From NCBI GenBank assembly GCA_024638445.1, contig JAHEKH010000089.1, positions 1-10,711 of the forward strand: DNA of 10,711 nucleotides, read 5' to 3'. Shown here piece after piece: positions 1 through 10,711 of this stretch (positions within the stretch are counted from its first letter, which is position 1; every line of letters starts with the position of its first letter). A program made the position numbers and the translations under genes. The notes beneath the pieces were generated by a model. It ran no database searches and had not been told where the DNA came from. It worked only from the letters and a program-made list of their open reading frames with translations. Source of the DNA: Gammaproteobacteria bacterium (GTDB lineage Bacteria > Pseudomonadota > Gammaproteobacteria > Steroidobacterales > JABDKV01).

Positions 1-1527
1 GATTGCTGCCACTCCGGCACCATGACCCGCGACGTGTTTGGCGACGCGGTGCGCGCCGCGCCCCCGGACAAACGGTCCGTGACAGCGATGGATCTTCCGG
101 AAACCCCCGCCGATACGCGCGATATCGATTCCGAAAAACTCAGCGAGGCCGGCTGGCTGGAAATCAGCGATTCCTACGTGGTGGTCTCCGGCTGCCGCGA
201 CAACGAGCTGTCGCATGAATTTCCCAAGCAGGATCCGGACAACCGAAACGGCGCGCTGACTCACTTCTTTACCGAAGCCCTGACGCGCGCAACACCCGGT
301 ACCACCTATCGCGACGCCTTCGAATATGCCCGCGGCAGGATCAATGCGAAATGGTCCGACCAGAACCCCCAGATCGACGGCAAGCTGGATCGCGAAATTT
401 TCGGCGTGAAAGACATCGAGCCGATTCGCTATGTCGCAGTGAAATCGGTCGACGGCGACAAAGTCGTGCTCAACGGCGGCAAGGCGCATGGCCTGTATCC
501 CAACTCACAGTGGACCGTCTATCCGCCCGGCACCAAGAGCACCGACGGCGTCGACAGCCTGGCCGTGCTGGAAATCGAAAAAGTCGGGGCCCTGACCTCG
601 AGCGCCGTGGTGCGCGAAACGCATGGCGAGGTCGTGCCGATGTCGCGCTGCGTGGAGACCGCCACGGCGGCCGAAAAATTCCAGCTGGGCATCGACCTCT
701 CCGCACTGCCTGAAGCCCAGCGCACAGCGCTGGCCGGCGGGATCGAGGAATCGAAACTACTGACCAGCGATGCCGTGGACAACGCGCTCCGGGTCTACGT
801 GCTCGAACCCCGCAGCTCGGCCGGTCCCGATGACCCTGTTCCCCAGGTTGAAAAAGTCGATACCCCGACCTTCGCCGTCGTTGACAACGGCGGGCAGCTG
901 ACCATGCCGCTGCACCCGGTGGCCGAGGACGGCATCGCCAAAACGCTGGTCAGCAACTTCGAAACAATCGCCCGCTACCGCAATGCGCTGGCGCTCGACA
1001 ACGCGGACAGCAAGCTCGATGTTGAGTTCAACCTGTACCGCGAGGTCGATGGCAAGTGGGAGCTGGCCAACGGCGGCAACAGCGTTTTCACCGAGGGTGA
1101 GCGGCTGTCTATCGAGGTCATCAACAACGAGAGCAAGCCGATCCATTTCTGCATTCTCGATTTCGAGCTGACCCGGGCAATTTCAGGGTTTTATCCACAG
1201 AGCCTCACCAGCGAGATGCTGGCGGCCGGCAAGAAGCTGGAGCTCGGCCGGGAGGAAAACGTTACTGCCTACATGAATCCGAAAGAGGAATACCCCGAGG
1301 ACCGGGGCGTAGAAACACTCAAGATCTTCGTTACTACCGACGAGTCCGATTTCCGCTGGCTCCAGCAGGGTGCCACCCGCGATGTCGGCCTCAGCGCACT
1401 GCAGAAAGAGTTCATGGCCGCCTATGGCGGTCCGGCGACCCGCGCGGTGAAGATCGAGAAGAAAAAAGCCTCTGATGACTGGAAGTCAATCAACCGTTCG
1501 TTCCATATCAAGAGACGTTTAGTCTGA
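1..1527 (+). CDS. Caspase-like peptidase (C14 / metacaspase-type catalytic domain), 5'-truncated by the window edge, with a ~490-aa C-terminal extension of unknown function
   Basis: Frame 1 is open from nt 1 (D-C-C-H-S-G-T-M...), so the ORF listed as 22..1527 continues upstream. DCCHSG at nt 1-18 matches the metacaspase/paracaspase catalytic-Cys signature D[AS]CHSG. The downstream motif VSGCRDNELSHE (about nt 187-219) resembles the metacaspase SGC(Q/K)DDQTS(A/Q)D motif. Stop codon TGA at 1525-1527. The remainder has no recognisable motif. Confidence 0.65.
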   Translation, partial: DCCHSGTMTRDVFGDAVRAAPPDKRSVTAMDLPETPADTRDIDSEKLSEAGWLEISDSYVVVSGCRDNELSHEFPKQDPDNRNGALTHFFTEALTRATPGTTYRDAFEYARGRINAKWSDQNPQIDGKLDREIFGVKDIEPIRYVAVKSVDGDKVVLNGGKAHGLYPNSQWTVYPPGTKSTDGVDSLAVLEIEKVGALTSSAVVRETHGEVVPMSRCVETATAAEKFQLGIDLSALPEAQRTALAGGIEESKLLTSDAVDNALRVYVLEPRSSAGPDDPVPQVEKVDTPTFAVVDNGGQLTMPLHPVAEDGIAKTLVSNFETIARYRNALALDNADSKLDVEFNLYREVDGKWELANGGNSVFTEGERLSIEVINNESKPIHFCILDFELTRAISGFYPQSLTSEMLAAGKKLELGREENVTAYMNPKEEYPEDRGVETLKIFVTTDESDFRWLQQGATRDVGLSALQKEFMAAYGGPATRAVKIEKKKASDDWKSINRSFHIKRRLV

Positions 1528-1537
1528 AAGGCCCGTC

Positions 1538-3763
1538 ATGAAGTACCAGGACTTCCGTATTCGTATCGAGTCGAAGACCGATACCGGATTTAACGTGAGT
1601 GTCGAATCCCCGGCTGGCAACGCCGATGAACATATCGTCCTGCCGTTCGATATCGATGAGGCAATGAAACAGTTTCACCAGATGGGGCTGGTTGTGCGTG
1701 GCGCCGCCAGCCGCAAGGTAGAAATCGACGGCCCGGAGCCAATGAAACCCTCCGAGTTCGGCGACCAGCTGTTTCGCGCGTTGTTTACCGGCCGTGTCGG
1801 CAAGATGTACAACGCCATGTGCCGTGATCTGCAGGATCCTGAGATGGGGCTGCGCATAAACCTTCACCTGAACCTGAACGACGCCGGTGTCGGCGCGTTG
1901 GCCGGCGTTCCATGGGAGTTCGTCTACGACGCCGACACAATGGATTATCTGAACCTGAGCCGCCAGACGCCCGTCATTCGTTATCTTGACGTGCAGCGGC
2001 CAAACACGGTCCAGCCGCTAACCGGCAAGCTCAAGGTGCTGGTCGTGATGTCCAGCCCGAAAGGTGAGCACGCCCTGGACCTCGACAAGGAACGCAAGCT
2101 CATCGAGTCGATCTGGTCGGGCGACGATAACGTCGAGCTGACCATCAAGGAAAACCCCACACCGAACAAGCTGCGTTCCTGGCTGACCAACGACAATTAC
2201 CACGTGCTGCACTACATGGGGCACGGCGCCCATGACGACAAGACCGGGGTAGGCGCCCTGGTCCTGGAGGACGATGACGGCAATGCCAACCTGCTCGACG
2301 CTGAAACGCTGGGCACATTCCTGCGTAACGCGCCGACCATCCGCCTGGCGTTCCTCAACGCGTGTGACCTGGCCAAGACCGGTGAAGACACGCCGTTTTC
2401 CGGCGTTGCCAACCGGCTGGTGATGGCCGGTCTGCCGGCGGTCGTAGCGATGCAGTTCCCGATTTCAGACGATGCCGCCATCGCTTTCGCGCGCACCTTT
2501 TATACGCGGCTGGAGAAAGGCCAGCCGGTCGACGAGGCGGTAGCCCATGGCCGGACCGCTATCCTGGCCGACAAGCCGGGCTCCATGGAATGGGGCACGC
2601 CGGTGCTGTACATGCGCACGCCGGACGGCCGTCTCTTCGAGCGCCCGGGCGTTGAACCACCGGCAGCGGACCCGGCCGCGGCGGCGGAAACCGCTCCGGC
2701 CCCGCCAGCGCCTGACGGCTCGGTTTCGGTGCCGAAAAAAGGCATCGGCGCGGCGGCCGGCATCCTGGTGCTGCTGGCAGCCATTGCGGCCGGCGCGTTC
2801 TTCATGCTCGGCGGCAAGAAGGTGCCGCTGGATTTCGAGAGCGAGGAAATCCAGGCCTACATCGATGAACCGGTCGAAGTGAAGTTCATCGCGACCAACA
2901 ACCCGGAAGGCACGGCCCACCTGGACCAGTACAACGTGTCGGTGGCCGCACCCAACGCTACCGGCCTCGAAGTTTCCGACACCGACGAGATCAACGGTTA
3001 CTGGCGCACGATGATTACGCCGCGGGAGACCGGTGATTACGAGATCATTGCCACCCCGGTAGACGTCAACAAGCCTGATGCCGAGCCCCGCAAGAAATCA
3101 GCAAAACTGGTGGTCAGCATCAATCCGGAAGTACAGGCGGCTTACGAGACGGCTATGGCCAGCGTCAGTACCCCGGCTGTGGCCACCGAAGACCTGATAG
3201 AGACATTGACGGGTCTCGAAGCCCGCGGTCTGAGCGCTGAAATGCGGTCGGAAATCGAGAAAACCCGGGCGGCGCTCGAAGAAGTGGTCGCCACGAAGAC
3301 ACTTGCGCGCAGCGGGTTTGCCAGCGACTCGAGCACCCTGGCCGAAAAAATTGCGGCGTACGTAGACTGGAAGACCCAGGTGCAGGCGACCCGCGATTTC
3401 GAACCCACCGCCAGCGCCTACCCGGAGGTCATGCAGGAACTCGAGACCCTGGCCGGGCGCATGGATGTCGCCGGGATGACGCTGTGCACGAAGGCACCGC
3501 CGTGCAGCGATGTATCGCGCGTGGCTTCGGGTGGCCGGGTCTACACGGTAATCGAGTACACACCGGCCGAAAAGGGCTCGAAGGTTGCGGTGCTGTATCA
3601 CGCGATGCCGGACAACGAGGTCAGGAAGACCCGCCAGATGACCCTGGCCGGCAATACCACTCACGCCGACTGGTCGACCGCGCCCGCGCGTGGCAGCTAC
3701 GAGGTGAGACTGTACAACGATGCCGGCGACCTGCTGGTCTCGAAGCCCCTCGAAATCTACTGA
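1538..3763 (+). CDS. CHAT-domain (caspase HetF-associated) protease-like protein with a single predicted transmembrane helix and a ~320-aa C-terminal domain
   Basis: ATG at 1538 lies 10 nt after the upstream stop and is preceded by AAAGG. The CHAT His motif LHYMGHG has its His codon at 2222-2224. The Cys motif LAFLNACDLAK has its Cys codon at 2363-2365. A Pro/Ala-rich linker (PPAADPAAAAETAPAPPAP) is followed by KKGIGAAAGILVLLAAIAAGAFFMLGGKK, a hydrophobic helix flanked by Lys on both sides at about nt 2741-2815. The C-terminal ~320 aa has alternating beta-like and helical stretches with no known motif. Confidence 0.7.
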   Translation: MKYQDFRIRIESKTDTGFNVSVESPAGNADEHIVLPFDIDEAMKQFHQMGLVVRGAASRKVEIDGPEPMKPSEFGDQLFRALFTGRVGKMYNAMCRDLQDPEMGLRINLHLNLNDAGVGALAGVPWEFVYDADTMDYLNLSRQTPVIRYLDVQRPNTVQPLTGKLKVLVVMSSPKGEHALDLDKERKLIESIWSGDDNVELTIKENPTPNKLRSWLTNDNYHVLHYMGHGAHDDKTGVGALVLEDDDGNANLLDAETLGTFLRNAPTIRLAFLNACDLAKTGEDTPFSGVANRLVMAGLPAVVAMQFPISDDAAIAFARTFYTRLEKGQPVDEAVAHGRTAILADKPGSMEWGTPVLYMRTPDGRLFERPGVEPPAADPAAAAETAPAPPAPDGSVSVPKKGIGAAAGILVLLAAIAAGAFFMLGGKKVPLDFESEEIQAYIDEPVEVKFIATNNPEGTAHLDQYNVSVAAPNATGLEVSDTDEINGYWRTMITPRETGDYEIIATPVDVNKPDAEPRKKSAKLVVSINPEVQAAYETAMASVSTPAVATEDLIETLTGLEARGLSAEMRSEIEKTRAALEEVVATKTLARSGFASDSSTLAEKIAAYVDWKTQVQATRDFEPTASAYPEVMQELETLAGRMDVAGMTLCTKAPPCSDVSRVASGGRVYTVIEYTPAEKGSKVAVLYHAMPDNEVRKTRQMTLAGNTTHADWSTAPARGSYEVRLYNDAGDLLVSKPLEIY

Positions 3764-3772
3764 AAAAACGGG

Positions 3773-3794
3773 GCCCGGCGATCGGTCGCCGGGC
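3773..3794. terminator. GC-rich hairpin (gcccggcga-tcgg-tcgccgggc) directly after the CHAT gene stop
   Basis: 9-bp perfect stem with a 4-nt loop. An A6 tract lies upstream and there is no T tract downstream on the + strand. A second hairpin ccgggc-gcaaa-gcccgg follows at about 3808-3824. The geometry would be a classic terminator only for the minus strand. Confidence 0.3.
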
Positions 3795-3913
3795 TCCGGC
3801 AAATCAACCGGGCGCAAAGCCCGGGCGGACCCGCGCCGCGTGCCGGGTGCCGGGTAGTAAACTAGCCAGTGCGTTTCCATTCGACGCAATAACCGGACGA
3901 CAGGACGACAGCC

Positions 3914-4387
3914 ATGCCCCGATCGATCGTTTATTCGACGCCCACTGTTGCAATGCCCGGCGACACCCGCGGCGTGCCCAGCGGCGACTACAAGGCGCCC
4001 CCGCAGGCGCCTCCGCCGGACGACTACGCCGACAAGCTCGTCAAGCTGATCCCGGTCGAAGTCATCGGCGTTTATGTCTCGATGCAGGCCATTCTCGAAG
4101 GCGCAAAGCTGGTGCATCCGCCGGTGCCCTGGCTGGTCTACGGTTTCGGAATCTTCGCCACCTGGTTTTTCCTGCGGTTCTCGCTGAAAGTCAGCGACCG
4201 CTGGCACCTGCTCCTGGCCATGCTGGCCTTCGCGATCTGGGCGTTCAGCCTGGGCGGACCGTTCGAGCAGTTCCAGTGGTACGTCGACGCCGGCAGCACC
4301 TATGCGGGCCTGCTCGTGGCCGGCTACACGTTTATAGCGCCCTTGTTGTTGCCGGAAATCTCCTTCGAGGATGAAAAGAAGCCCTGA
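3914..4387 (+). CDS. Small integral membrane protein (3 predicted TM helices), hypothetical
   Basis: 157-aa ORF with AGGA 10 nt upstream. Three hydrophobic segments: WLVYGFGIFATWFFLRF, WHLLLAMLAFAIWAFSLGG and YAGLLVAGYTFIAPLLL. Its 3' end overlaps the next ORF by 17 nt, which suggests translational coupling. Confidence 0.5.
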   Translation: MPRSIVYSTPTVAMPGDTRGVPSGDYKAPPQAPPPDDYADKLVKLIPVEVIGVYVSMQAILEGAKLVHPPVPWLVYGFGIFATWFFLRFSLKVSDRWHLLLAMLAFAIWAFSLGGPFEQFQWYVDAGSTYAGLLVAGYTFIAPLLLPEISFEDEKKP

Positions 4388-4868
4388 CGCCATGGACCCT
4401 CGCCTGATGCTTGCCCTGGTCGTTCTGGCCCTGCCGGTGTCCGGTGTTTGTGGAGACAACGAGGAGCTCCTGACCGAACCGGTCCAGGTCGAGCCGGTGG
4501 TGGCGCCACCGCGCCCGGTCGTCTTTGCGCGGCGAATCACTGAACACGAGAAGACCTGCCAGCATGAGGCGCTTCCTTACCTGGGAATGACGCTGTCGAT
4601 CAGCCCGCAGGGTCATGTGGTCGGCGTGACCCACCGCGTGGTGGGAGACTTCGGCGCAAAGCGCATCGAAGCCATCATTGCCGACGTCCTGACGTATCGA
4701 TTCAAACCCTTCCTGGTCGACGGCCGGCTGTTGGCGCTGAGCCTGCCGCACCACGTCGTCATTGCCGACAACGAGGTCGTTCACTGTTACGAGGCGCCGC
4801 TGTTCCGCGAGCGCCGGATCGATCACCTGGATCTGGGGGAGTTTCCCGCCGGGACCGACGGGCAATAG
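4371..4868 (+). CDS. Secreted/periplasmic protein with a TonB-C-terminal-like domain (weak motif match); the start may instead be ATG 4392
   Basis: N-terminal signal-like segment (R/K then LMLALVVLALPVSGVCG). The C-terminal stretch GHVVGVTHRVVGDFGAKRIEAIIADVLTYRFKPFLVDGR resembles the TonB_C pattern G.V.V...s.G...LD.AA..Av..w.F.P. Overlaps the upstream gene by 17 nt if it starts at 4371. Confidence 0.45.
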   Translation: MKRSPDAMDPRLMLALVVLALPVSGVCGDNEELLTEPVQVEPVVAPPRPVVFARRITEHEKTCQHEALPYLGMTLSISPQGHVVGVTHRVVGDFGAKRIEAIIADVLTYRFKPFLVDGRLLALSLPHHVVIADNEVVHCYEAPLFRERRIDHLDLGEFPAGTDGQ

Positions 4869-4878
4869 GGAAAAAAGA

Positions 4879-4901
4879 ACCGGCGGCATTGCGCCGCCGG
4901 T
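4879..4901. terminator. Bidirectional Rho-independent terminator between convergent genes
   Basis: Stem accggcggc / gccgccggt (9 bp) with loop attgc. On the minus strand it is followed immediately by TTCTTTTTTCCC, a classic terminator for the SPFH gene. On the + strand an A tract precedes it and a T5 run follows about 17 nt later. Confidence 0.6.
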
Positions 4902-4947
4902 CAATCGTGCTGCGGTTGTTTTTCTTTGAGATCGTTGCCGGGCGACA

Positions 4948-6099
4948 TCAGGCGTCACCGTTGACGTTGATCTTGACGGTGTCCTGCAGCACGCCGTCCA
5001 GACCGCCGAAGACGGTCAGCTTGTCCACCTTCTCTGTCACCTTCTCGAGCGTCTCCAGCTCCTTCAGGCGCAGCAGTGCGGGGTGCTCACTCATCAGGCG
5101 GGCGGTGTTCAGCAGCGCACGGGTCGCTGCCGTCTCCTCACGGCGCTTGATGACGTTCGCCTGCGCGGCCTTCTCGGCCTCGACCACCTGGTTCAGAATT
5201 TCCTTCATGTCACCAGGCAGGATGACGTCCTTGACGCCGACGTTAGTCACCTCGATACCGTGTTCGCCCACCGCGGGCGCAACCGCCTCGTAGATCACGC
5301 GATCCAGCTCACCCTTGTTCGCCAGCAGCGTGTCCAGGGTGCGGGTACCGATGGCAGTACGCAGGGCGAACTGCAGCTCGCGGTACAGCTGGCCGGTGAC
5401 GTCCACCAGGTCCTTGTGGGCCTTCACCGGGTCGGCGATCTTGTAGGCAGCGGTCAGGTTCACGCGCAGCGTGACCTTGTCCTTCGTCAGGATTTCCTGG
5501 CCGCCCACGTCCATCGCCTGCAGGCGCAGGTCGACATGCGCGATCTTGATGTTGCGGTTGAACTTCCAGTACGCGTGCGTACCCGGCTGCAGTACGGTCT
5601 TGAACTCACCGTCCACGGTCAGCAGGCCGACGTGCTGGTCGGCCACCTCGGTGGCGACGATAAAGTTCGCAACCTGCACCAGGTCACGCGGGCGCGCACG
5701 GCCCAGGACGGCCGCCTTGCCACGGGGAATCTCGAACTCCTTTTCGATGTTCACCGTCTCGACGGCAATCTCCACCGGGCCCTTCCAGTACAGCTGGCGG
5801 GTGCCCGGGGCCAGGACCGTGTGCATCTTGCCGTTCTTGTAGACGAAGGCCACCTCGTAGTCGCCCAGGTCCACAATCTGGAAGTGCTGCTTGCACAGCT
5901 CGTGCTCGTCATCGATCAGGAAGTCGACGATACAGTGCTCGAACTCGGGCACCGTCAGGTCGTTGACCTCGACCGCGACACGCTTGAACGGTGCAATGAC
6001 CCAGCGGACGCCAGGGCGCAGGATCTGCGTGAACATGCCGTTCACGAAGACCAGGCCACGCTCGTGCTGGGCAATTACCTTGCGTGTAATACCAAACAT
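4948..6099 (-). CDS. SPFH / band-7 (stomatin-prohibitin-flotillin-HflK/C) family protein with an extra ~150-aa N-terminal region
   Basis: The C-terminal 230 aa carries the typical band-7 pattern (QEILTKDKVTLRVNLTAAYKI...GIEVTNVGVKDVILPGDMKEILNQVVEAEKAAQANVIKRREETA...) followed by a coiled-coil tail. I place the start at ATG 6099-6097 (MFGITRKV) because GAGGAGAGA lies 5-13 nt upstream. The longer ORF to 6162 has no RBS. Confidence 0.75.
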   Translation of the reverse strand: MFGITRKVIAQHERGLVFVNGMFTQILRPGVRWVIAPFKRVAVEVNDLTVPEFEHCIVDFLIDDEHELCKQHFQIVDLGDYEVAFVYKNGKMHTVLAPGTRQLYWKGPVEIAVETVNIEKEFEIPRGKAAVLGRARPRDLVQVANFIVATEVADQHVGLLTVDGEFKTVLQPGTHAYWKFNRNIKIAHVDLRLQAMDVGGQEILTKDKVTLRVNLTAAYKIADPVKAHKDLVDVTGQLYRELQFALRTAIGTRTLDTLLANKGELDRVIYEAVAPAVGEHGIEVTNVGVKDVILPGDMKEILNQVVEAEKAAQANVIKRREETAATRALLNTARLMSEHPALLRLKELETLEKVTEKVDKLTVFGGLDGVLQDTVKINVNGDA

Positions 6100-6313
6100 G
6101 GTGTCTCTCCTCTTGTTTTGGTTGGATGAAATGCGGCTGATAGCTGCGACCGGCCGCCGCAAAAAACCGGTCGGTCAATGCCCGTGGATCACCTCCTTTG
6201 CTTGCAGAAAATTTGGGCGCTGCAACCCAGGAACCCGTGTCGCGGCTTCGCCGCAGGTTCGCCTTACGTCAGTGCCCCGTGTGGAGCGGCTTCAGCCGCG
6301 CTTCTTTGGGTCT

Positions 6314-6369
6314 GGTTCCGGGATTGCGCGAAAGAGCTGCCGGCAGATCGCTCGCGCAATCCCGGAACC
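6314..6369. repeat. Perfect 17-bp inverted repeat (ggttccgggattgcgcg / cgcgcaatcccggaacc) enclosing an internal palindrome ctgccggcag; a 56-nt composite hairpin
   Basis: Read directly from the sequence. Arms at 6314-6330 and 6353-6369, with the 22-nt spacer itself palindromic. The mirror-image peptides in the + and - ORF tracks (FRDCAKELPADRSRNPGTRP and FRDCASDLPAALSRNPGTRP) are a by-product of this symmetry. Confidence 0.7.
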
Positions 6370-6672
6370 AGGCCAGCCGGAGATTGCGGAAGGGGTTAGC
6401 GGGGTCGGCCCCACACCCGTGCCGCGGGCCTGCCGTGCGATCCGGGAAGCCTGGTAACAGTGACGATGCGCTGCGCCGCACTCCTCCCTGAGTGATCGCA
6501 CGGGCCTTGTGCCCGGGTTGGCGCATCGTGACCGCTACCCGGCGACCCGGCCGGGCGGCCGGCGCAGGCGCACGCGGGTGCTGCGACACTGGCCGAAGGC
6601 CGGGCGTCGCTCGGGGCGTTCCCCTTTGGTTTCCAAATAACGGTTAACAGCCGTTGGCTTTTCGCCAGTAGA

Positions 6673-6745
6673 GTGGAAAAGGAGGATTCGAACCTCCGAC
6701 CCACGACGTTCAGGTCGTTGCTCTACCCATCTGAGCTATATTCCC
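6673..6745 (-). tRNA. Degenerate tRNA-like gene or pseudo-tRNA (anticodon region GAA, Phe-like) at the distal end of the array
   Basis: On the minus strand: GGGAATA TA GCTC AGATGGGTA GAGC A ACGAC CTGAAC GTCGT GGGTC GGAGG TTCGAAT CCTCC TTTTCCA C. The D-arm and T-arm are good. The anticodon loop is only 6 nt. There are two acceptor mismatches (G1:A72, T6:T67) and no encoded CCA. Confidence 0.4.
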
Positions 6746-6897
6746 GATTGGCGCTCTTCGCCGGACGCTCGCTCGGTATACGCCGTGCAACACACGCGTT
6801 GGCGCACCGGACCGGGTTCTCAGAACCGGAACCGCTGAACGATTGCCGTAGCAGAAAGAACTCTGTGTGGCCCGCCGCAGGAATCGGCACGCCGAAT

Positions 6898-6978
6898 TGG
6901 TAGCCGCCCCCGGATTCGAACCGGGAATCACCCGGGTCTGAGCCGGGCAGGTATACCCGAGGTTCCCTTCAGGCGGCC
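6898..6978 (-). tRNA. Aberrant tRNA-like gene, 81 nt, anticodon loop CUCAGAC (CAG, Leu-reading) but no long variable arm and a non-standard D-region
   Basis: Acceptor GGCCGCC / GGCGGCT (7 bp, one G:U), discriminator A, CCA encoded. T-arm CCCGG TTCGAAT CCGGG. Anticodon arm CCCGG CTCAGAC CCGGG. Between the acceptor and the anticodon stem lie 24 nt (TGAAGGGAACCTCGGGTATACCTG) that do not fold as a canonical D-arm. Confidence 0.45.
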
Positions 6979-6990
6979 AAAGAAATTAAC

Positions 6991-7066
6991 TGGATCACCG
7001 CCGAGGACTCGAACCCCGACCCCGGGGTTCAGGGCCCCGTGTCCTGCCCGGTTAGACGAGCGGTGA
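6991..7066 (-). tRNA. tRNA-Gln (anticodon CUG), 76 nt, CCA encoded, C33 instead of U33
   Basis: TCACCGC TC GTCT AACCGGGCA GGAC A CGGGG CCCTGAA CCCCG GGGT CGGGG TTCGAGT CCTCG GCGGTGA T CCA. All four stems pair. The anticodon loop CCCTGAA gives CUG at positions 34-36 but lacks the universal U33. Confidence 0.65.
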
Positions 7067-7071
7067 CTATC

Positions 7072-7146
7072 TGGAGCGGCCCGGGGGACTTGAACCCCCA
7101 CCCTCAACCTTCGCACGGTTGTGCTCTGCCCTTGAGCTTGAGCCGC
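7072..7146 (-). tRNA. tRNA-Arg (anticodon GCG), 75 nt, CCA encoded
   Basis: GCGGCTC AA GCTC AAGGGCA GAGC A CAACC GTGCGAA GGTTG AGGGT GGGGG TTCAAGT CCCCC GGGCCGC T CCA. Clean cloverleaf. Position 32 is G, which is unusual. Anticodon GCG rather than the ACG usual in bacteria. Confidence 0.65.
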
Positions 7147-7151
7147 ATGAG

Positions 7152-7229
7152 TGGTTGCCCGCGGTGGAATCGAACCACTGTGCGTTCCGCCTTGTAAGGG
7201 CGGTGTCCGGCCACCGGACCACGCGGGCT
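7152..7229 (-). tRNA. tRNA-Val (anticodon UAC)-like, 78 nt, CCA encoded, irregular
   Basis: AGCCCGC GTG GTCC GGTGGCC GGAC A CCGCC CTTACAA GGCGG AACGCAC AGTGG TTCGATT CCACC GCGGGCA A CCA. Irregularities: A1:A72 mismatch, 3 nt between the acceptor and D-stem, a 7-nt variable loop and an A49:C65 mismatch. Confidence 0.55.
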
Positions 7230-7277
7230 TTTCGGCTGTGCTCCTCACCGGTAGCGCATGCTAGAGTTTCTGCGCCG

Positions 7278-8765
7278 ATGAACAACGAACACGACCTCGA
7301 GCTGATCCTCAATTCCCAGGTGCCCCTGATCGTGGTGGAAACCCACGACGAACCACCGATGCTCGAGCTGCTCAAGCGCGTTTCGCTGAGCCGCAACGCC
7401 GCCGACTACCAGCCGGTTTTCCGCTGGACGATTACCGACGGGCTGCAACGCATGGAGCTGGCGCTGCAGGACGACACCGAGGAACTCGACCCCGAGCAGG
7501 TGTTGCGGCATATCCGCAGGACCCAGCAGACCGGCATCTACGTGCTGCTGGATTTCCACCCGTACCTGAAAGACCCGGTCAATATCCGGTTGCTGAAAGA
7601 CATCTGCATCGATTTTCCGCAGGCGAAGCGTCATGTGGTTTTGCTGAGTCACCAGCTGGAGCTGCCGCCTGAACTGGAGGCCTTTGGCGCGCGTTTCCAT
7701 ATCGCCCTGCCCAACGAGCGGCAGCGCAACGAGATCATTCGCGAAGTCGCCTCCGAATGGCGCGAGGCCAAAGGCAAGACCGTGTCGGCCGATCCCCGCG
7801 CGCTGGAGCTGCTGGTCACGAACCTCGCCGGCCTGACCGAATCCGATACCCGCCGGCTGGCGCGTAACGCCATTTTCAATGACGGCGCAATTACCCGCAG
7901 TGATCTCGAAGGCGTGATGGCGGCCAAGTACGAGCTACTCAACCGCGGCGGCGTGCTCGGCTTTGAATACGAAACCCACCGGTTCTCCGACGTGGCCGGG
8001 CTGAGCCGGCTGAAGGCCTGGCTGGAGCAACGCAAGCCGGCTTTTCTCGGCGAGGCGCAGGCCGCCGGGCTGGACGTGCCTCGCGGGGTGCTGCTGATCG
8101 GCGTGCAGGGCTGCGGCAAAAGCCTGACCGCGAAAGCAACTGCCGGTGTTTACGGCGTGCCGCTGCTGCGGCTGGACTTCGGCACGCTGTACAACAAGTA
8201 TCACGGCGAGAGCGAGCGCAACCTGCGCGAGTCCCTGAAAACCGCTGAAGTAATGGCGCCGTGCGTGCTGTGGATCGACGAGATCGAAAAGGGGTTGTCG
8301 ACCGGGCACGATTCCACCGGCACGACCCGGCGGGTGCTGGGCACTTTCCTGACCTGGCTGGCGGAAAAAAACTCGCCGGTGTTTGTCGTCGCGACCGCCA
8401 ACGACATCTCGGCGCTGCCACCCGAACTGGTGCGCAAGGGCCGTTTCGACGAGCTGTTCTTCGTCGATCTTCCCGATTCGGATGTCCGTATGGCCATTTT
8501 CGAGGTGCACCTGCGTTTTCGAGGGCACGACCCGGCGGCGTTCGACCTCGCAAGGCTCGAGGCTGCGGCGGACGGTTTTTCCGGCGCCGAAATCGAGCAG
8601 GGCATCGTATCCGCGCTCTATGCCGCGCATGCCAAGCGCGAACCTTTATCGACCGCACACATCCTGCGCGAACTGGAACGGACCCAGCCGTTATCGGTCG
8701 TTATGGCCGAGACCGTGCACGCACTGCGAAGCTGGGCCGACGGCCGTACGGTGCCGGGACACTGA
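7278..8765 (+). CDS. Classical-clade AAA+ ATPase (FtsH/Cdc48/Vps4-type module) with a ~270-aa N-terminal domain of unknown function
   Basis: Walker [14 protein letters not shown], Walker [11 protein letters not shown] and the second region of homology [29 protein letters not shown], followed by a helical lid. Start placed at ATG 7278, the first ATG clear of the tRNA genes. No clear SD (only 48 nt after tRNA-Val). The longer ORF from 7119 would overlap two tRNA genes. Confidence 0.75.
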
Positions 8766-8797
8766 GTCGCATCGCGGCCGGGCAGAACCTCCCTGCC

Positions 8798-8872
8798 TGG
8801 TGCGGACAGCGGGAGCTGAACCCGCGGCTCTGCACCGGCAACGCATTGCTCTCCCCTTAAGCGGACATCCGC
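8798..8872 (-). tRNA. tRNA-Gly (anticodon GCC)-like, 75 nt, CCA encoded, non-canonical
   Basis: GCGGATG TCC GCTT AAGGGGA GAGC A ATGCG TTGCCGG TGCAG AGCC GCGGG TTCAGCT CCCGC TGTCCGC A CCA. The acceptor and T-stem pair. The T-loop TTCAGCT is atypical. The anticodon stem is weak (A27:G43), and there is an extra nt at positions 8-9. Confidence 0.5.
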
Positions 8873-8881
8873 AGGTCTTGT

Positions 8882-8956
8882 TGGTGGACCGTGAAGGACT
8901 TCAACCCTCATCTCGCCGGGTAAGAACCGGGTGCTCTGGCATTGAGCTAACGATCC
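8882..8956 (-). tRNA. tRNA-Lys (anticodon CUU), 75 nt, CCA encoded
   Basis: GGATCGT TA GCTC AATGCCA GAGC A CCCGG TTCTTAC CCGGC GAGAT GAGGG TTGAAGT CCTTC ACGGTCC A CCA. The D-loop lacks G18G19. The T-loop has G56 instead of C56. C27:C43 mismatch. Confidence 0.6.
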
Positions 8957-8961
8957 GTATC

Positions 8962-9036
8962 TGGGGTGGCCGGCCGGGTTTGCACCGGCATCGTCCGGGT
9001 TCACGGCCCGGGGCTTTGCCTTTAAGCGACAGCCAC
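8962..9036 (-). tRNA. tRNA-His (anticodon GUG)-like, 75 nt, discriminator C, CCA encoded
   Basis: GTGGCTG TC GCTT AAAGGCA AAGC C CCGGG CCGTGAA CCCGG ACGAT GCCGG TGCAAAC CCGGC CGGCCAC C CCA. C33 replaces U33. T-loop TGCAAAC. There is no encoded G-1: the upstream base is T. Confidence 0.55.
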
Positions 9037-9041
9037 AGAGC

Positions 9042-9116
9042 TGGTCGGGGAAAAAGGAATCGAACCTTCTGTCACGCGGGCCCAAACCGCGAGCTTTGCC
9101 ACTAAGCTATTCCCCG
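9042..9116 (-). tRNA. tRNA-Pro (anticodon UGG), 75 nt, CCA encoded, near-canonical
   Basis: CGGGGAA TA GCTT AGTGGCA AAGC T CGCGG TTTGGGC CCGCG TGACA GAAGG TTCGATT CCTTT TTCCCCG A CCA. C1:G72 and G37 are as expected for Pro. Confidence 0.8.
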
Positions 9117-9123
9117 GGGAAAC

Positions 9124-9197
9124 TGGTTGCGCGAGCCGGAATCGAACCAGCGTCTCGCCCTTATCAGGGGCGTGCTCTTTCATTGAGCTATCGCGCT
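9124..9197 (-). tRNA. tRNA-Ile (anticodon GAU), 74 nt, CCA encoded
   Basis: AGCGCGA TA GCTC AATGAAA GAGC A CGCCC CTGATAA GGGCG AGAC GCTGG TTCGATT CCGGC TCGCGCA A CCA. The anticodon arm is nearly identical to enterobacterial tRNA-Ile(GAU). A1:A72 mismatch. The D-loop lacks GG. Confidence 0.65.
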
Positions 9198-9204
9198 CGA
9201 GATC

Positions 9205-9280
9205 TGGAGAACCGGACGGGACCCGAACCTGCAATCGCCAGGTTGAGAGCCTGGCCGCTTATCGGTTTGCGTACCGGTTC
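9205..9280 (-). tRNA. tRNA-Glu (anticodon CUC)-like, 76 nt, CCA encoded
   Basis: GAACCGG TA CGCA AACCGATA AGCG G CCAGG CTCTCAA CCTGG CGATT GCAGG TTCGGGT CCCGT CCGGTTC T CCA. 3-bp D-stem with no GG in the D-loop. The T-loop has G58. A51:C63 mismatch. Confidence 0.55.
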
Positions 9281-9286
9281 AGTGTT

Positions 9287-9361
9287 TGGCGCCCCGTGCG
9301 AGATTCGAACTCGCGTCTGGCGGATCGACAGTCCGCTGCTTTACGCTCAAGCTAACGAGGC
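9287..9361 (-). tRNA. tRNA-Asp (anticodon GUC), 75 nt, discriminator G, CCA encoded
   Basis: GCCTCGT TA GCTT GAGCGTA AAGC A GCGGA CTGTCGA TCCGC CAGAC GCGAG TTCGAAT CTCGC ACGGGGC G CCA. All stems pair, but the D-loop lacks GG. Confidence 0.7.
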
Positions 9362-9399
9362 GGGTTGATATCAGGCCGTTCTCCGCTCTGCTCGTGTCT

Positions 9400-9417
9400 C
9401 CGGTAAAATGATACCGG
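9400..9417. promoter_or_regulatory. Palindrome ccggta-aaatga-taccgg in the divergent region between the tRNA array (minus) and the transporter gene (plus)
   Basis: Perfect 6-bp arms read directly from the sequence. It sits 46 nt upstream of the EamA start and 39 nt upstream of the first tRNA 5' end. No convincing -35/-10 hexamers could be assigned. Confidence 0.3.
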
Positions 9418-9462
9418 TTTCAATCGCCCGGCCCGGTTCCCCGAACCAGCGGAGTGTTTCCA

Positions 9463-10335
9463 ATGTTCGCCAGAATCGATGCGCGTGTCCTGGTCGTGCT
9501 CGGCGCCGTGTTGTTTTCCACCGGTGGTGCCGCTATCAAGGGCACGACACTCACCGGTTGGCAGGTCGCCGCGTTCCGGTCCGGTGTAGCCTGCATCGCG
9601 CTCCTGGTCATGATTCCGTCGGTGCGCCGAGAGCTGTCCTGGCGGGTGCTGCCGGTGTCGGTCGTGTATGCGACGACGCTGGCGTTGTATGTGCTGGCCA
9701 ATAAGCTCACGACGGCCGCCAACACCATTTTTCTGCAGTCCACGGCGCCACTGTATCTGTTGTTTCTCGGGCCGTTGCTGCTGCGCGAGCATACGCAAAA
9801 ACGCGACTGGTGGTTCATCGTTGCCCTGGCAGGCGGACTGGCGCTGTTTTTTGTGTCGATCGACGCACCAACCGAAACCGCACCGGCACCGCTCGCGGGC
9901 AACCTGCTCGGCGGACTCGCGGGCTTTAGCTGGGCGCTGACACTGCTCGGGCTGCGCTGGCTGGCCATCAGTGCCGGACCCGGATCAGCCGCCGCGGCGG
10001 CCGCAACCGGGAATCTGCTGACCTTCCTCGTTTGTGCTTACTGGGCGTTTCCGGTCGTCGACAGCGCACCGCGCGACTGGCTGTTGATCGCTTACCTGGG
10101 TGTGTTCCAGATCGGGGTTGCGTACGTGCTGGTTACCGCCGCGATGCACCGGGTATCCGCCCTGGAGGCGTCGCTACTGATCCTGATCGAGCCGGTGCTG
10201 AATCCCGTCTGGGCGTGGTTGTTTCTCGATGAGACCCCCGGCCGGCTCGCGCTGCTCGCGGGATCTCTCATCCTGGTGAGTATTACCGTGAGGACGCTGC
10301 AGCAACGCCGGTTGCCGAACTCTGGCGAACCCTGA
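9463..10335 (+). CDS. EamA / DMT-superfamily (drug-metabolite transporter) membrane protein, ~10 TM helices
   Basis: 290 aa and almost entirely hydrophobic, with two EamA-like halves (LANKLTTAANTIFLQSTAPLYLLFLGPLLLRE and LVTAAMHRVSALEASLLILIEPVLNPVWAWLFLDE). GGAG lies 8 nt upstream of ATG 9463. The GTG at 9454 from the ORF track lacks spacing to that SD. Confidence 0.7.
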   Translation: MFARIDARVLVVLGAVLFSTGGAAIKGTTLTGWQVAAFRSGVACIALLVMIPSVRRELSWRVLPVSVVYATTLALYVLANKLTTAANTIFLQSTAPLYLLFLGPLLLREHTQKRDWWFIVALAGGLALFFVSIDAPTETAPAPLAGNLLGGLAGFSWALTLLGLRWLAISAGPGSAAAAAATGNLLTFLVCAYWAFPVVDSAPRDWLLIAYLGVFQIGVAYVLVTAAMHRVSALEASLLILIEPVLNPVWAWLFLDETPGRLALLAGSLILVSITVRTLQQRRLPNSGEP

Positions 10336-10443
10336 CCCGTTTCGGCGCAGGGCATCGCGCGCCGGCCGGACGCAGCGATTCAGTCGCAACTACGCCGTTG
10401 AATTGCCGGCCTTGTGGCGCAGCCCGGGCCCGGCTCCCGGCGG

Positions 10444-10711
10444 CTACTGATTCCTGAGAATCTGCTCGAACTCCAGGTTGTCGTTAACGATGTAAACATC
10501 GTGGTAACGAACGGAGCCGAGCGCGTAAGTGAAACGGACCCGGTACATGCCGGTCTCGGGACCGTGATAGTAGAATTTGCTGCCGTCCGCTGCGACGAAA
10601 TCCGGTTCGTCAGGCCTGCGCCACGTGTGGTTCACGGAACACGACCGGTACGCATCGGGACTACCCGGATACGTGGTCTTGCAGCCGAAGAATCCATCCA
10701 GCACCTCGCCA
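10444..10711 (-). CDS. Hypothetical protein, C-terminal fragment (gene continues past the window end)
   Basis: Minus-strand ORF with stop TAG at 10446-10444, open to the window edge. Cys/Tyr/His-rich composition (FFGCKTTYPGSPDAYRSCSVNHTW...YYHGPETGMYRVRF) with no motif I recognise. Confidence 0.35.
   Translation of the reverse strand, partial: GEVLDGFFGCKTTYPGSPDAYRSCSVNHTWRRPDEPDFVAADGSKFYYHGPETGMYRVRFTYALGSVRYHDVYIVNDNLEFEQILRNQ

Follow-up and report, generated by a model that had tools for sequence, protein, structure and literature searches.

A probable truncated copy of a compact tRNA gene array, with shared departures from the canonical tRNA core, in a gammaproteobacterial contig

The window analysed here is a stretch of 10,711 nucleotides (nt) from a gammaproteobacterial assembly (GCA_024638445.1, contig JAHEKH010000089.1, positions 1 to 10,711), and it contains an array of 12 tRNA-like genes identified with Rfam and ARAGORN. 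All 12 lie on the minus strand, from position 9361 down to 6673, in two clusters, B and A (Table 1). Within each cluster the spacers are 5-12 nt long, apart from the 151-nt spacer of cluster A; each gene corresponds to a different amino acid, and the array is non-periodic. CCA is encoded by all 12 genes but the terminal one and Val, where it is ambiguous. The density is 12 genes in 2.69 kb, including a 1.5-kb AAA+ ATPase gene between the clusters, and cluster B packs seven genes into 564 nt; protein genes bound the array at both sides. The window probably holds a truncated, rearranged copy of a compact, CCA-encoding tRNA array, whose family appears to have been kept as folded cloverleafs and is most likely a decoding set.

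Table 1. Features of the window (coordinates are positions in the window)
Feature	Position	Strand	Evidence and remarks
Cluster B: Asp(GTC), Glu(CTC), Ile(GAT), Pro(TGG), His(GTG), Lys(CTT), Gly(GCC)	9361->8798	minus	
tRNA-Asp(GTC), first in array	9287..9361	minus	Rfam 59 bits, ARAGORN; CCA encoded
tRNA-Glu(CTC)	9205..9280	minus	Rfam 47.7 bits
tRNA-Ile(GAT)	9124..9197	minus	Rfam 60.3 bits
tRNA-Pro(TGG)	9042..9116	minus	Rfam 62 bits
tRNA-His(GTG)	8962..9036	minus	Rfam 50.9 bits
tRNA-Lys(CTT)	8882..8956	minus	Rfam 51.3 bits
tRNA-Gly(GCC)	8798..8872	minus	Rfam 34.5 bits, weakest match; ARAGORN at relaxed threshold only
AAA+ ATPase (495 amino acids, Ycf46/SpoVK type)	7278..8765	plus	Pfam AAA 1e-29; fills the Gly-Val gap
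Cluster A: Val(TAC), Arg(GCG), Gln(CTG), 81-nt Leu(CAG)-like, 151-nt spacer, terminal tRNA-like gene	7229->6673	minus	
tRNA-Val(TAC)	7152..7229	minus	Rfam 47.8 bits with T-stem deletions
tRNA-Arg(GCG)	7072..7146	minus	Rfam 56.4 bits
tRNA-Gln(CTG)	6991..7066	minus	Rfam 44.7 bits
tRNA-Leu(CAG)-like, 81 nt, class-I-sized, short variable region	6898..6978	minus	CCA encoded; ARAGORN at relaxed threshold only
151-nt spacer, Leu-like to terminal gene	6747..6897	minus	
Terminal CCA-less tRNA-like gene	6673..6746	minus	Rfam 47.6 bits with deletions; ARAGORN anticodon ambiguous
14-nt direct repeat GGCTTTTCG(C/G)C(A/T)GT	6656-6669 and 7226-7239		Brackets cluster A exactly
30-nt inverted repeat, 49 nt apart	6442-6550		Between array end and SPFH gene
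Loopless palindrome, 33-nt arms, 88% complementary	6309-6374		Between array end and SPFH gene
SPFH/Band-7 gene with 208-amino-acid partner	4332-6162	minus	
501-amino-acid open reading frame, then 741-amino-acid CHAT protease	22-3763	plus	Weak caspase-domain match (501-amino-acid frame); PADLOC SAVED_CHAT/BovA-like matches

Few nucleotides in biology are as strongly conserved as U33, G18G19 and T54-Psi55-C56, and bacterial-type tRNAs without them are usually called pseudogenes. An earlier note, made from the letters of this DNA alone, had stated that such features are repeatedly broken in the array. To place this on a common scale, one parser was used throughout to score U8, A14, G18G19, U33, T54-Psi55-C56, A58 and a 7-nt anticodon loop. 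Ten of the 12 genes depart from this core at one site or more, with 15 deviations in total; Pro alone is fully canonical. The same parser found no deviant among 56 bacterial tRNAs (Fisher p = 2e-10), a rough baseline that is rich in Ile and Ala genes of ribosomal RNA (rRNA) operons, and six deviants, with one deviation each, among 36 phage and viral tRNAs (Fisher p = 6e-5). The features listed in the earlier note are present in the sequence, with adjustments to the register of Val, the D region of Leu and the name of the terminal gene. Eleven of the 12 genes score 34.5-62 bits against Rfam RF00005, above the 29-bit gathering threshold, and the scores of a phage array, taken for comparison, are 43-71.5 bits. 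A hand count over the ten better genes gave about 14 deviations at 120 invariant core sites but only five broken pairs among 210 helix pairs, where neutral change at the core-site rate would break about 35.

The anticodon loops of the array differ from the bacterial norm by C33, G32 and G37A38. C33 occurs, as had been noticed, in Gln (loop CCCTGAA) and His (loop CCGTGAA); G32 is found in Arg and G37A38 in Asp. The D-loops of four genes lack GG, also as described before: GAGCGTA in Asp, AAACCGATAA in Glu, AATGAAA in Ile (A19) and AATGCCA in Lys (G18 C19). The four unusual T-loops that had been listed are likewise present, namely TGCAAAC in His (G55), TTGAAGT in Lys (G56, giving a C19:G56 pair), TTCAGCT in Gly (G58) and TTCGGGT in Glu (G58). 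To these we add A8 for U8 in Arg, the T73 discriminator in Arg, Glu and Gln, G14 in Asp, T in place of G at position -1 of His, an A.C mismatch in the T stem of Glu, a C27.C43 mismatch in Lys and, in Gly, an A27.G43 mismatch and three nucleotides (one of them extra) between the acceptor and D stems.

Related arrays were located by way of spurious open reading frames. A 140-codon, stop-free antisense frame over Lys to Asp of cluster B was searched with phmmer against 1.84 billion representative proteins, and it matched a predicted protein (P0125) over the Glu and Asp stretch with 60% identity; a search with P0125 gave four further spurious frames. The seven contigs that carry these frames, designated L053-L059, are packed tRNA arrays of 0.6-2 kb and 55-59% G+C from NCBI, ENA and Logan assemblies (ERR10503133/30, ERZ23491733, ERZ25074888/91, GCA_044344285.1 and GCA_044240345.1), and they come from unrelated samples. 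Where pattern scans of DNA are unsuccessful, spurious frames across tRNA arrays can thus lead to their relatives through protein databases. Scans of viral contigs for the Ile and Lys D-arms, three anticodon loops in sequence, the Ile->Pro junction, the His and Lys arms and the Lys 5' half gave chance matches or unrelated tRNAs, and a metagenome scan with the Lys D-loop plus T-loop matched a protein-coding gene only. Among 185,579 species representatives there was no Ile(GAT)->Pro(TGG) junction of the window's kind, the matches being to Ile of rRNA operons only, and a six-frame translation of both clusters found nothing at E<=1 among 5.8 billion proteins.

The longest relative, L055, carries 17-18 genes on a 2-kb contig in the order Thr-Tyr-Phe-Asn-(Ala-like)-Asp-Pro(CGG)-His-Lys(CTT)-Val(CAC)-Arg(GCG)-Gln(CTG)-Trp-Ile-Leu(CAG, short arm), followed by a 162-nt spacer and a terminal CCA-less tRNA. 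L059 has Lys-Gly(GCC), 73 nt, and Val(TAC), and in L053 and L054 Asp is followed by a Glu/Arg chimera. The backbone common to the window and its relatives is therefore Asp-(Glu)-Pro-His-Lys-(Gly)-Val-Arg-Gln-Leu-spacer-terminal, with the window reading Asp-Glu-Ile-Pro-His-Lys-Gly, AAA, Val-Arg-Gln-Leu-spacer-terminal. This shared order implies that clusters A and B were once one array, that the AAA gene occupies the Gly-Val gap (no more than 73 nt in L059), and that the window is without five 5' genes and Trp. In the chimera (reverse complement 1092-1172 of L053, and L054), the 5' part, with acceptor strand, D arm and anticodon arm, matches the Glu(CTC) of the window, and the 3' part, with T arm and acceptor strand, matches the Arg(GCG) of L055. 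Judged from these alignments the chimera is evidence of recombination between array members, which would have deleted Pro-His-Lys-Val.

In cluster B, the relationship of the window genes to their counterparts varies widely. Lys is 91-95% identical to its orthologues, G19 is found in none of them, and the 27:43 pair is open in all six copies; its 19:56 pair is formed in the window only, since the relatives have A19 or C19 opposite C56. The Asp orthologues (74-77% identity) show three compensatory pairs with 99% of helix cells paired, keep G37A38 in all copies, and have C, T or G at position 56 across the family. The His orthologues (71-75%) all encode G-1. The 5' two-thirds of Glu matches the chimera, which likewise has no GG, and the position of Pro is taken in the relatives by Pro(CGG), with 64-67% identity. 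The nearest homologue of Ile is the tRNA-Ile of Stenotrophomonas phage Mendera (81%), which has A1:T72 and GG; the family's own Ile genes lie elsewhere in the array and share 58-64% identity with it, and so are not true orthologues. The same holds for Gly, whose canonical counterpart at the same array position in L059 is 56% identical. The window Gly is probably a pseudogene as regards structure.

In cluster A, Arg has an orthologue in L055 (74%) with T8, T73 and the D-loop dinucleotide GA together with the T-loop TTTGAAT, which gives an A19:U56 pair. Gln is 62-66% identical to its relatives and shares C33 with L053 and L054, whereas L055 has T33; a homologue in the viral contig L050 (77%) has T33 and G73 and is otherwise canonical. 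An A1:A72 mismatch had been reported for Ile and Val. It stands for Ile, but for Val it varies with the parse: G1:C72, with seven acceptor pairs followed by A73 and ACCA, is the result of both the covariance model and ARAGORN, while the register with A1.A72 and A73-CCA is favoured by the orthologue alignment (T1.G72, A73, CCA). In either register Val is abnormal: its D hairpin has 6 bp and a loop of 3 nt, its T stem has 4 bp, and its variable region measures 8 nt, against 4 nt in its orthologues (63-68% identity). The Leu-like gene gave no Rfam match even at E<=10. It has the CAG anticodon and lacks the long arm, as had been said, but its D region, described as unfoldable, retains a 3-bp D stem (G12.U30, G13-C29, G14-C28) that is also present in the relatives, the Leu-type D-loop being disrupted by a private 3-nt insertion. 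Its orthologues in L053 and L055 (79-84%) show two compensatory pairs, 6:72 and 29:41 of the anticodon stem.

The terminal gene has a 6-nt anticodon loop (CTGAAC) and a 3' acceptor strand that is one base short, which amounts to two single-base deletions, and it is a probable pseudogene. The short loop and the missing CCA had been recognized before; the name "Phe-like" is doubtful, as the L055 counterpart (62% identity) resembles tRNA-Met(CAT), has a loop of 7 nt and likewise lacks CCA. The last ~45 nt of the spacer that precedes it in L055 align with the window's spacer. The possibility that the 151-nt spacer holds two dead tRNAs was dropped, because it has no significant fold (z = 0.25) and no Rfam match.

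Comparison across the arrays separates old traits from new ones. C33 is found in His (6 of 6 copies), Tyr (3 of 3), Gln (3 of 4) and Pro(CGG) (3 of 5) and in no other isoacceptor group, and in His it is fixed although positions 32 and 38 vary among copies. Also shared with relatives are D-loops without GG (the Glu part of the L053 chimera and Asp of L053 and L054), Lys without G19, T73 in Arg and in the Gln of L053 and L054, the short-arm Leu(CAG) and the CCA-less terminal gene, and the 1:72 pair is mismatched or wobble in Gln, Leu, Val and Ile of the family. Private to the window are G55 and the loss of G-1 in His, G58 in Glu, A8 in Arg, the extra base in Gly, the insertions in Val, the 3-nt insertion in the Leu D-loop and the two deletions of the terminal gene; at Arg position 8 and His position 55 the relatives are canonical. 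On this evidence about half of the oddities first noted are old lineage traits, tolerated or selected, and the other half are private lesions. The proposal that the array is decaying thus fits the private lesions of an eroding copy and fails for the shared traits that are structurally compensated. Outgroups are canonical (GG in the Mendera Ile, U33 in the L050 Gln and in a Tyr gene of an Alteromonas megaplasmid), which is consistent with C33 being derived in the family.

Several alignments suggest that structure has been under selection. In His, all 110 helix cells are paired and six pairs have changed on both sides, including 19:56, a result reached by none of 500 shuffles. Nine of the ten variable columns of Lys are unpaired positions, and the tenth keeps its pair. 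All seven distinct T-loops that lack C56 have the complementary base after G18 (permutation p = 1e-4, uncorrected for phylogeny): A19:U56 occurs in His, Arg and Asp, and C19:G56 in Asp and in the window Lys. For example, positions 19 and 56 (G:C versus A:U) account for two of the three differences between the His genes of L056 and L057. In these alignments the G19:C56 tertiary pair of the family behaves like an ordinary helix pair. Conserved oddities that reside in genes with compensatory helix changes are therefore not decay. Broken structure without conservation of pairing, the mark of a pseudogene, is not seen in His, Asp, Lys or Leu, and the terminal gene shows the structural part of it.

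In the genes of the window, the codon used most for each of the 12 amino acids is the one that pairs with the corresponding anticodon; the anticodons of Lys, Glu and Gln have C34, and that of Arg is GCG. The relatives likewise carry anticodons that begin with G or C, and the anticodons are kept among orthologues. This match points to ordinary decoding as the selected function. The earlier note had also offered that the molecules work outside standard decoding, as decoys, regulators or substrates of a dedicated processing or repair activity, and these roles are unsupported.

We propose that the genes of the family are maintained by selection as folded cloverleaf tRNAs, and that the array would be a decoding set fitted to G+C-rich codon usage, in which each amino acid is served by a single tRNA released from a polycistronic precursor. 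C33, the Lys without G19, the short-arm Leu, weak 1:72 pairs and elbows of the A19:U56 or C19:G56 type would be heritable departures of the core. The family would then probably consist of selected, non-canonical, decoding tRNAs and the window of an eroding copy, without the five 5' genes and Trp, split by the AAA gene and marked by private lesions. The sequences themselves show the oddities, the family and its common gene order, the compensatory changes and the codon match; from these we infer that the array tRNAs are expressed, charged and used in translation, and that the family resides on a mobile element or phage as a supernumerary set.

Several observations weigh against this interpretation. 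The relatives are contigs of 0.6-2 kb. There are three to six distinct orthologues per gene and they are mutually related, so that the shuffle statistics overstate significance, and with these few related orthologues substitutions are not assignable to the window's branch. In D-loops of 8-9 nt more than one base can be read as position 19, and no single register pairs 19:56 in all Asp copies. For Ile and Gly the relatives offer no true orthologue, which leaves their oddities unclassed. Several of the identity elements established in E. coli are absent here (G-1 from His, A20 from Arg, G73 from Gln and Glu), which argues against efficient charging of some members.

The missing identity elements can also be turned into an argument that the whole array consists of pseudogenes drifting neutrally after horizontal acquisition, with the oddities as random lesions. 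The terminal gene and Gly look broken, the window copy is truncated and split with no promoter-like site found for the array, and the relatives show gene loss and the Glu/Arg chimera. Even so we consider this improbable, since core sites deviate far more often than helix pairs break, two-sided changes have left 99-100% of the helix cells of His and Asp paired, every altered base 56 is matched by a complementary base 19, C33 of His is invariant while its neighbours vary, and every anticodon matches a top codon. For His, Asp, Lys and Leu, plain decay appears largely refuted by the compensatory changes. Selection on the fold alone is no proof of decoding, and the molecules might instead be decoys, regulators or processing signals, or donate amino acids to non-ribosomal transferases. 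Lost elbows, weak 1:72 pairs and odd T stems are of the kind that, in known non-ribosomal tRNAs, lower use by EF-Tu or the ribosome; the staphylococcal non-proteinogenic tRNA-Gly, for instance, lacks G18G19. Twelve specificities, one each and matched to the commonest codon, are nonetheless what marks a decoding set, orthologues keep their anticodons, and no transferase, T-box or tRNA-binding gene lies nearby, all of which make a non-decoding role very unlikely. Errors of sequencing or assembly, such as homopolymer indels and chimeric joins, could be suspected in four indels that fall in short homopolymer runs (the loop and acceptor strand of the terminal gene, the extra C of Gly and the extra A of Val). 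With about 8 kb of coding sequence free of frameshifts (frames of 501, 741, 404, 495 and 293 amino acids are intact) and the substitution-type oddities recurring in independent NCBI, ENA and Logan assemblies, we give this explanation next to no weight.

Weak selection on a redundant set and escape from tRNA-targeting enzymes are both candidate reasons for the departures of the core in such a decoding set. Weak selection would let the tertiary core drift as long as the helices and some type of 19:56 pair persist, which is how animal mitochondrial tRNAs are known to behave. Under adaptive escape, which we rate as possible though clearly the less probable account of the locus, the deviant anticodon loops (C33 and unusual bases at 32, 37 and 38) and elbows would be poor substrates for tRNA-targeting nucleases, toxins or modification enzymes, and the array would be a resistant back-up or an anti-defence supply. 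Phage tRNA anticodon loops differ from those of the host, which has been proposed as evasion of anticodon nucleases (PMC10264068), and both a model and data for phage tRNAs support escape (PMC10264068, PMC11464382, PMC11555353); a putative anti-defence function has also been ascribed to tRNA array units (PMC12803027). C33 is constant in His, where positions 32 and 38 vary around it, and in Tyr, and appears again in Gln and Pro, the window lies beside defence-like genes (CHAT protease, SAVED_CHAT/BovA-like), and phage Mendera also has a C33 tRNA and a G56 tRNA. In opposition, no nuclease was found in the literature as blocked by U33C, the change is without effect for the gamma-toxin of K. lactis (PMC2275089), and no nuclease gene lies within the window. 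U33C as a known escape from anticodon nucleases was dropped as unsupported by that mutagenesis (PMC2275089). Position 19 of Lys, which flips freely between A and C and is unpaired in five of six copies, looks like relaxed rather than directional selection, so it favours weak selection, whereas the invariance of C33 in His and Tyr favours escape. A further version, also tentative, is that a lineage possibly borne on mobile elements carries working elongator tRNAs with a selected, rebuilt core (C33, elbows of A19:U56 or C19:G56, a class-I-sized Leu), as a partly orthogonal supply that tRNA-targeting enzymes of hosts or competitors would not recognize.

Set beside known systems, the locus most resembles the long tRNA arrays and array units of bacteria, examples of which are the trn operon of Anabaena PCC 7120, ICEAfe1 of Acidithiobacillus ferrooxidans and arrays in Mycobacterium (PMC8421152, PMC4758250, PMC5966550). 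Horizontally spread long arrays are often cryptic or poorly expressed, but can be induced and used (PMC8421152; PMC4758250). Common to these and the window are dense, same-strand, non-periodic isoacceptors with 5-12 nt spacers, a mixture of working genes and pseudogenes, and a gene order common to relatives; the patchy distribution that suggests horizontal spread may be shared as well. The window differs in having 12 genes (17-18 in the longest relative) where the definition asks for 20, and in the opposite-strand protein gene that interrupts it; the published accounts (PMC8421152, PMC4758250, PMC5966550) report no conserved, compensated core departures. As a tRNA array unit, defined by at least 20 genes and at least two genes per kb (PMC4758250), the array has the density and falls short in number with its 12 genes. 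By the L-array definition of operon-close, non-periodic genes in the same direction (PMC8421152), each cluster qualifies, and given the opposite-strand gene the locus counts as two arrays.

The clusters of mycobacteriophage C1, T5, Mendera and Caulobacter phage phiCbK share short D-loops and tight packing with the window, and their tRNAs are 72-84% identical to those of the window or family (72% for phiCbK-type phages and family genes). Deviation is far rarer in the phage arrays examined, at six of 36 tRNAs and once in each, than in the window, with ten deviant genes and 15 deviations, and the window looks like bacterial chromosome. When both clusters were compared with phages and plasmids by blastn, only generic phage tRNA matches of 75-84% were found; a whole-window megablast had no match among phages and one weak match among plasmids, to the SPFH gene. 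No phage or viral contig with the window's gene order was found in the viral searches, and the idea of a phiCbK-like or Mendera-like phage cluster was dropped because the gene order differs. A scan of viral contigs with the Gln arm found the 19-tRNA array of L050 (IMGVR_UViG_3300049782_000007, 60% G+C), whose non-Gln tRNAs are not orthologous. This viral array includes a 75-nt tRNA-Leu(TAG) without a long arm (6455-6529), and class-I-sized Leu tRNAs are therefore not confined to the L053-L059 family. In Mendera (L008), tRNA-Glu(TTC) has C33 (4610-4684, loop TCTTCAC), and the T-loop of tRNA-Trp (3031-3106) is TTGAAGT, with a G56 that is uncompensated, as the D-loop is an ordinary GG one.

The closest annotated DNA is the 604-kb megaplasmid pAMCP48-600 of Alteromonas mediterranea (NZ_CP018025.1), in which Phe-Tyr-Phe is 74% identical over 159 nt to Thr/Tyr/Phe of the family. 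Its cluster (L065 5185-6199: Cys, Cys, Trp, Phe, Tyr, Phe) lies ~4.5 kb from a site-specific integrase gene; unlike the family it consists of six tRNAs, its Tyr has the canonical U33, and no window gene has a counterpart there. Animal mitochondrial tRNAs keep their helices by compensatory change, have lost or replaced G18, G19, T54, Psi55 and C56, and still decode. The likeness to the family is one of working only, in that the tertiary core erodes first under weak selection; there is no homology, and the family's stems are G+C-rich and full-sized, CCA is encoded and 19:56 is mostly re-formed.

The orthologous copies indicate that some core departures were inherited, kept for long and structurally compensated. 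If the tRNAs are charged and used, nature would have tested in this family which of the "invariant" tRNA features are really needed for translation, and the family would be a source of unusual scaffolds for engineered tRNAs. It would also offer a test case for mobile-element arrays as supplies resistant to tRNA-targeting defence systems.

The AAA gene is ~65% identical to a widespread family of 496-amino-acid proteins of Woeseiaceae and other Gammaproteobacteria. These homologues belong to a conserved operon of two ~227-amino-acid proteins, NlpC/P60, a ~430-amino-acid hypothetical protein, AAA, an FHA protein, small proteins and DUF1232, and in the six genomic contexts examined no tRNA genes were found near them. 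In the window the gene thus lies outside its customary setting. It was abandoned as an anchor for orthologous arrays because its homologues never adjoin tRNAs in those contexts. It matches the phage family phrog_8638 over its full length; a phage derivation was dropped, since the phage homologues are ~30% identical. The tRNA-free contexts of the AAA homologues, and the fact that the nearest annotated relatives of single tRNAs are in phages or on a megaplasmid, suggest an acquired locus.

The related arrays contain further units of their own. The 73-nt stretch of L059 (reverse complement 660-732) is a tRNA-like unit with a perfect 7-bp acceptor stem and ACCA, and its T-loop, TGCAACT, has the same odd "TGCAA" as the window His. 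Between Asn and Asp, L055 (reverse complement 764-831) and L053 have a conserved, non-canonical Ala(TGC)-like unit with a 6-nt D-loop (AGAAAG), the T-loop TTTGATC and 31.7 Rfam bits; its 6:67 pair shows a compensatory change between L053 and L055. Downstream of the terminal tRNA of L055 (reverse complement ~1925-1955) lies a fragment like the T arm and 3' acceptor strand of the window Val (AGTGGTTCGAGTCCACCCGCGGGCGA), which may be left over from the attachment site of an element that had inserted into a tRNA gene.

Among the window's proteins there is no tRNA-related protein, transferase, T-box, tRNA-binding or nuclease gene. The CHAT protease, caspase-like and SPFH neighbourhood beside the array is defence-island-like, and an EamA transporter gene is also among the flanking genes. 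One copy of the 14-nt direct repeat lies directly downstream of the terminal gene and the other extends over the initial 3 nt of Val. In 3.8 kb a repeated 9-mer would arise by chance, but the position of the 14-nt repeat at both borders of cluster A is noteworthy; it may be a recombination or insertion scar. The palindrome and the 30-nt inverted repeat beyond the array end could be terminators or a small repeat element.

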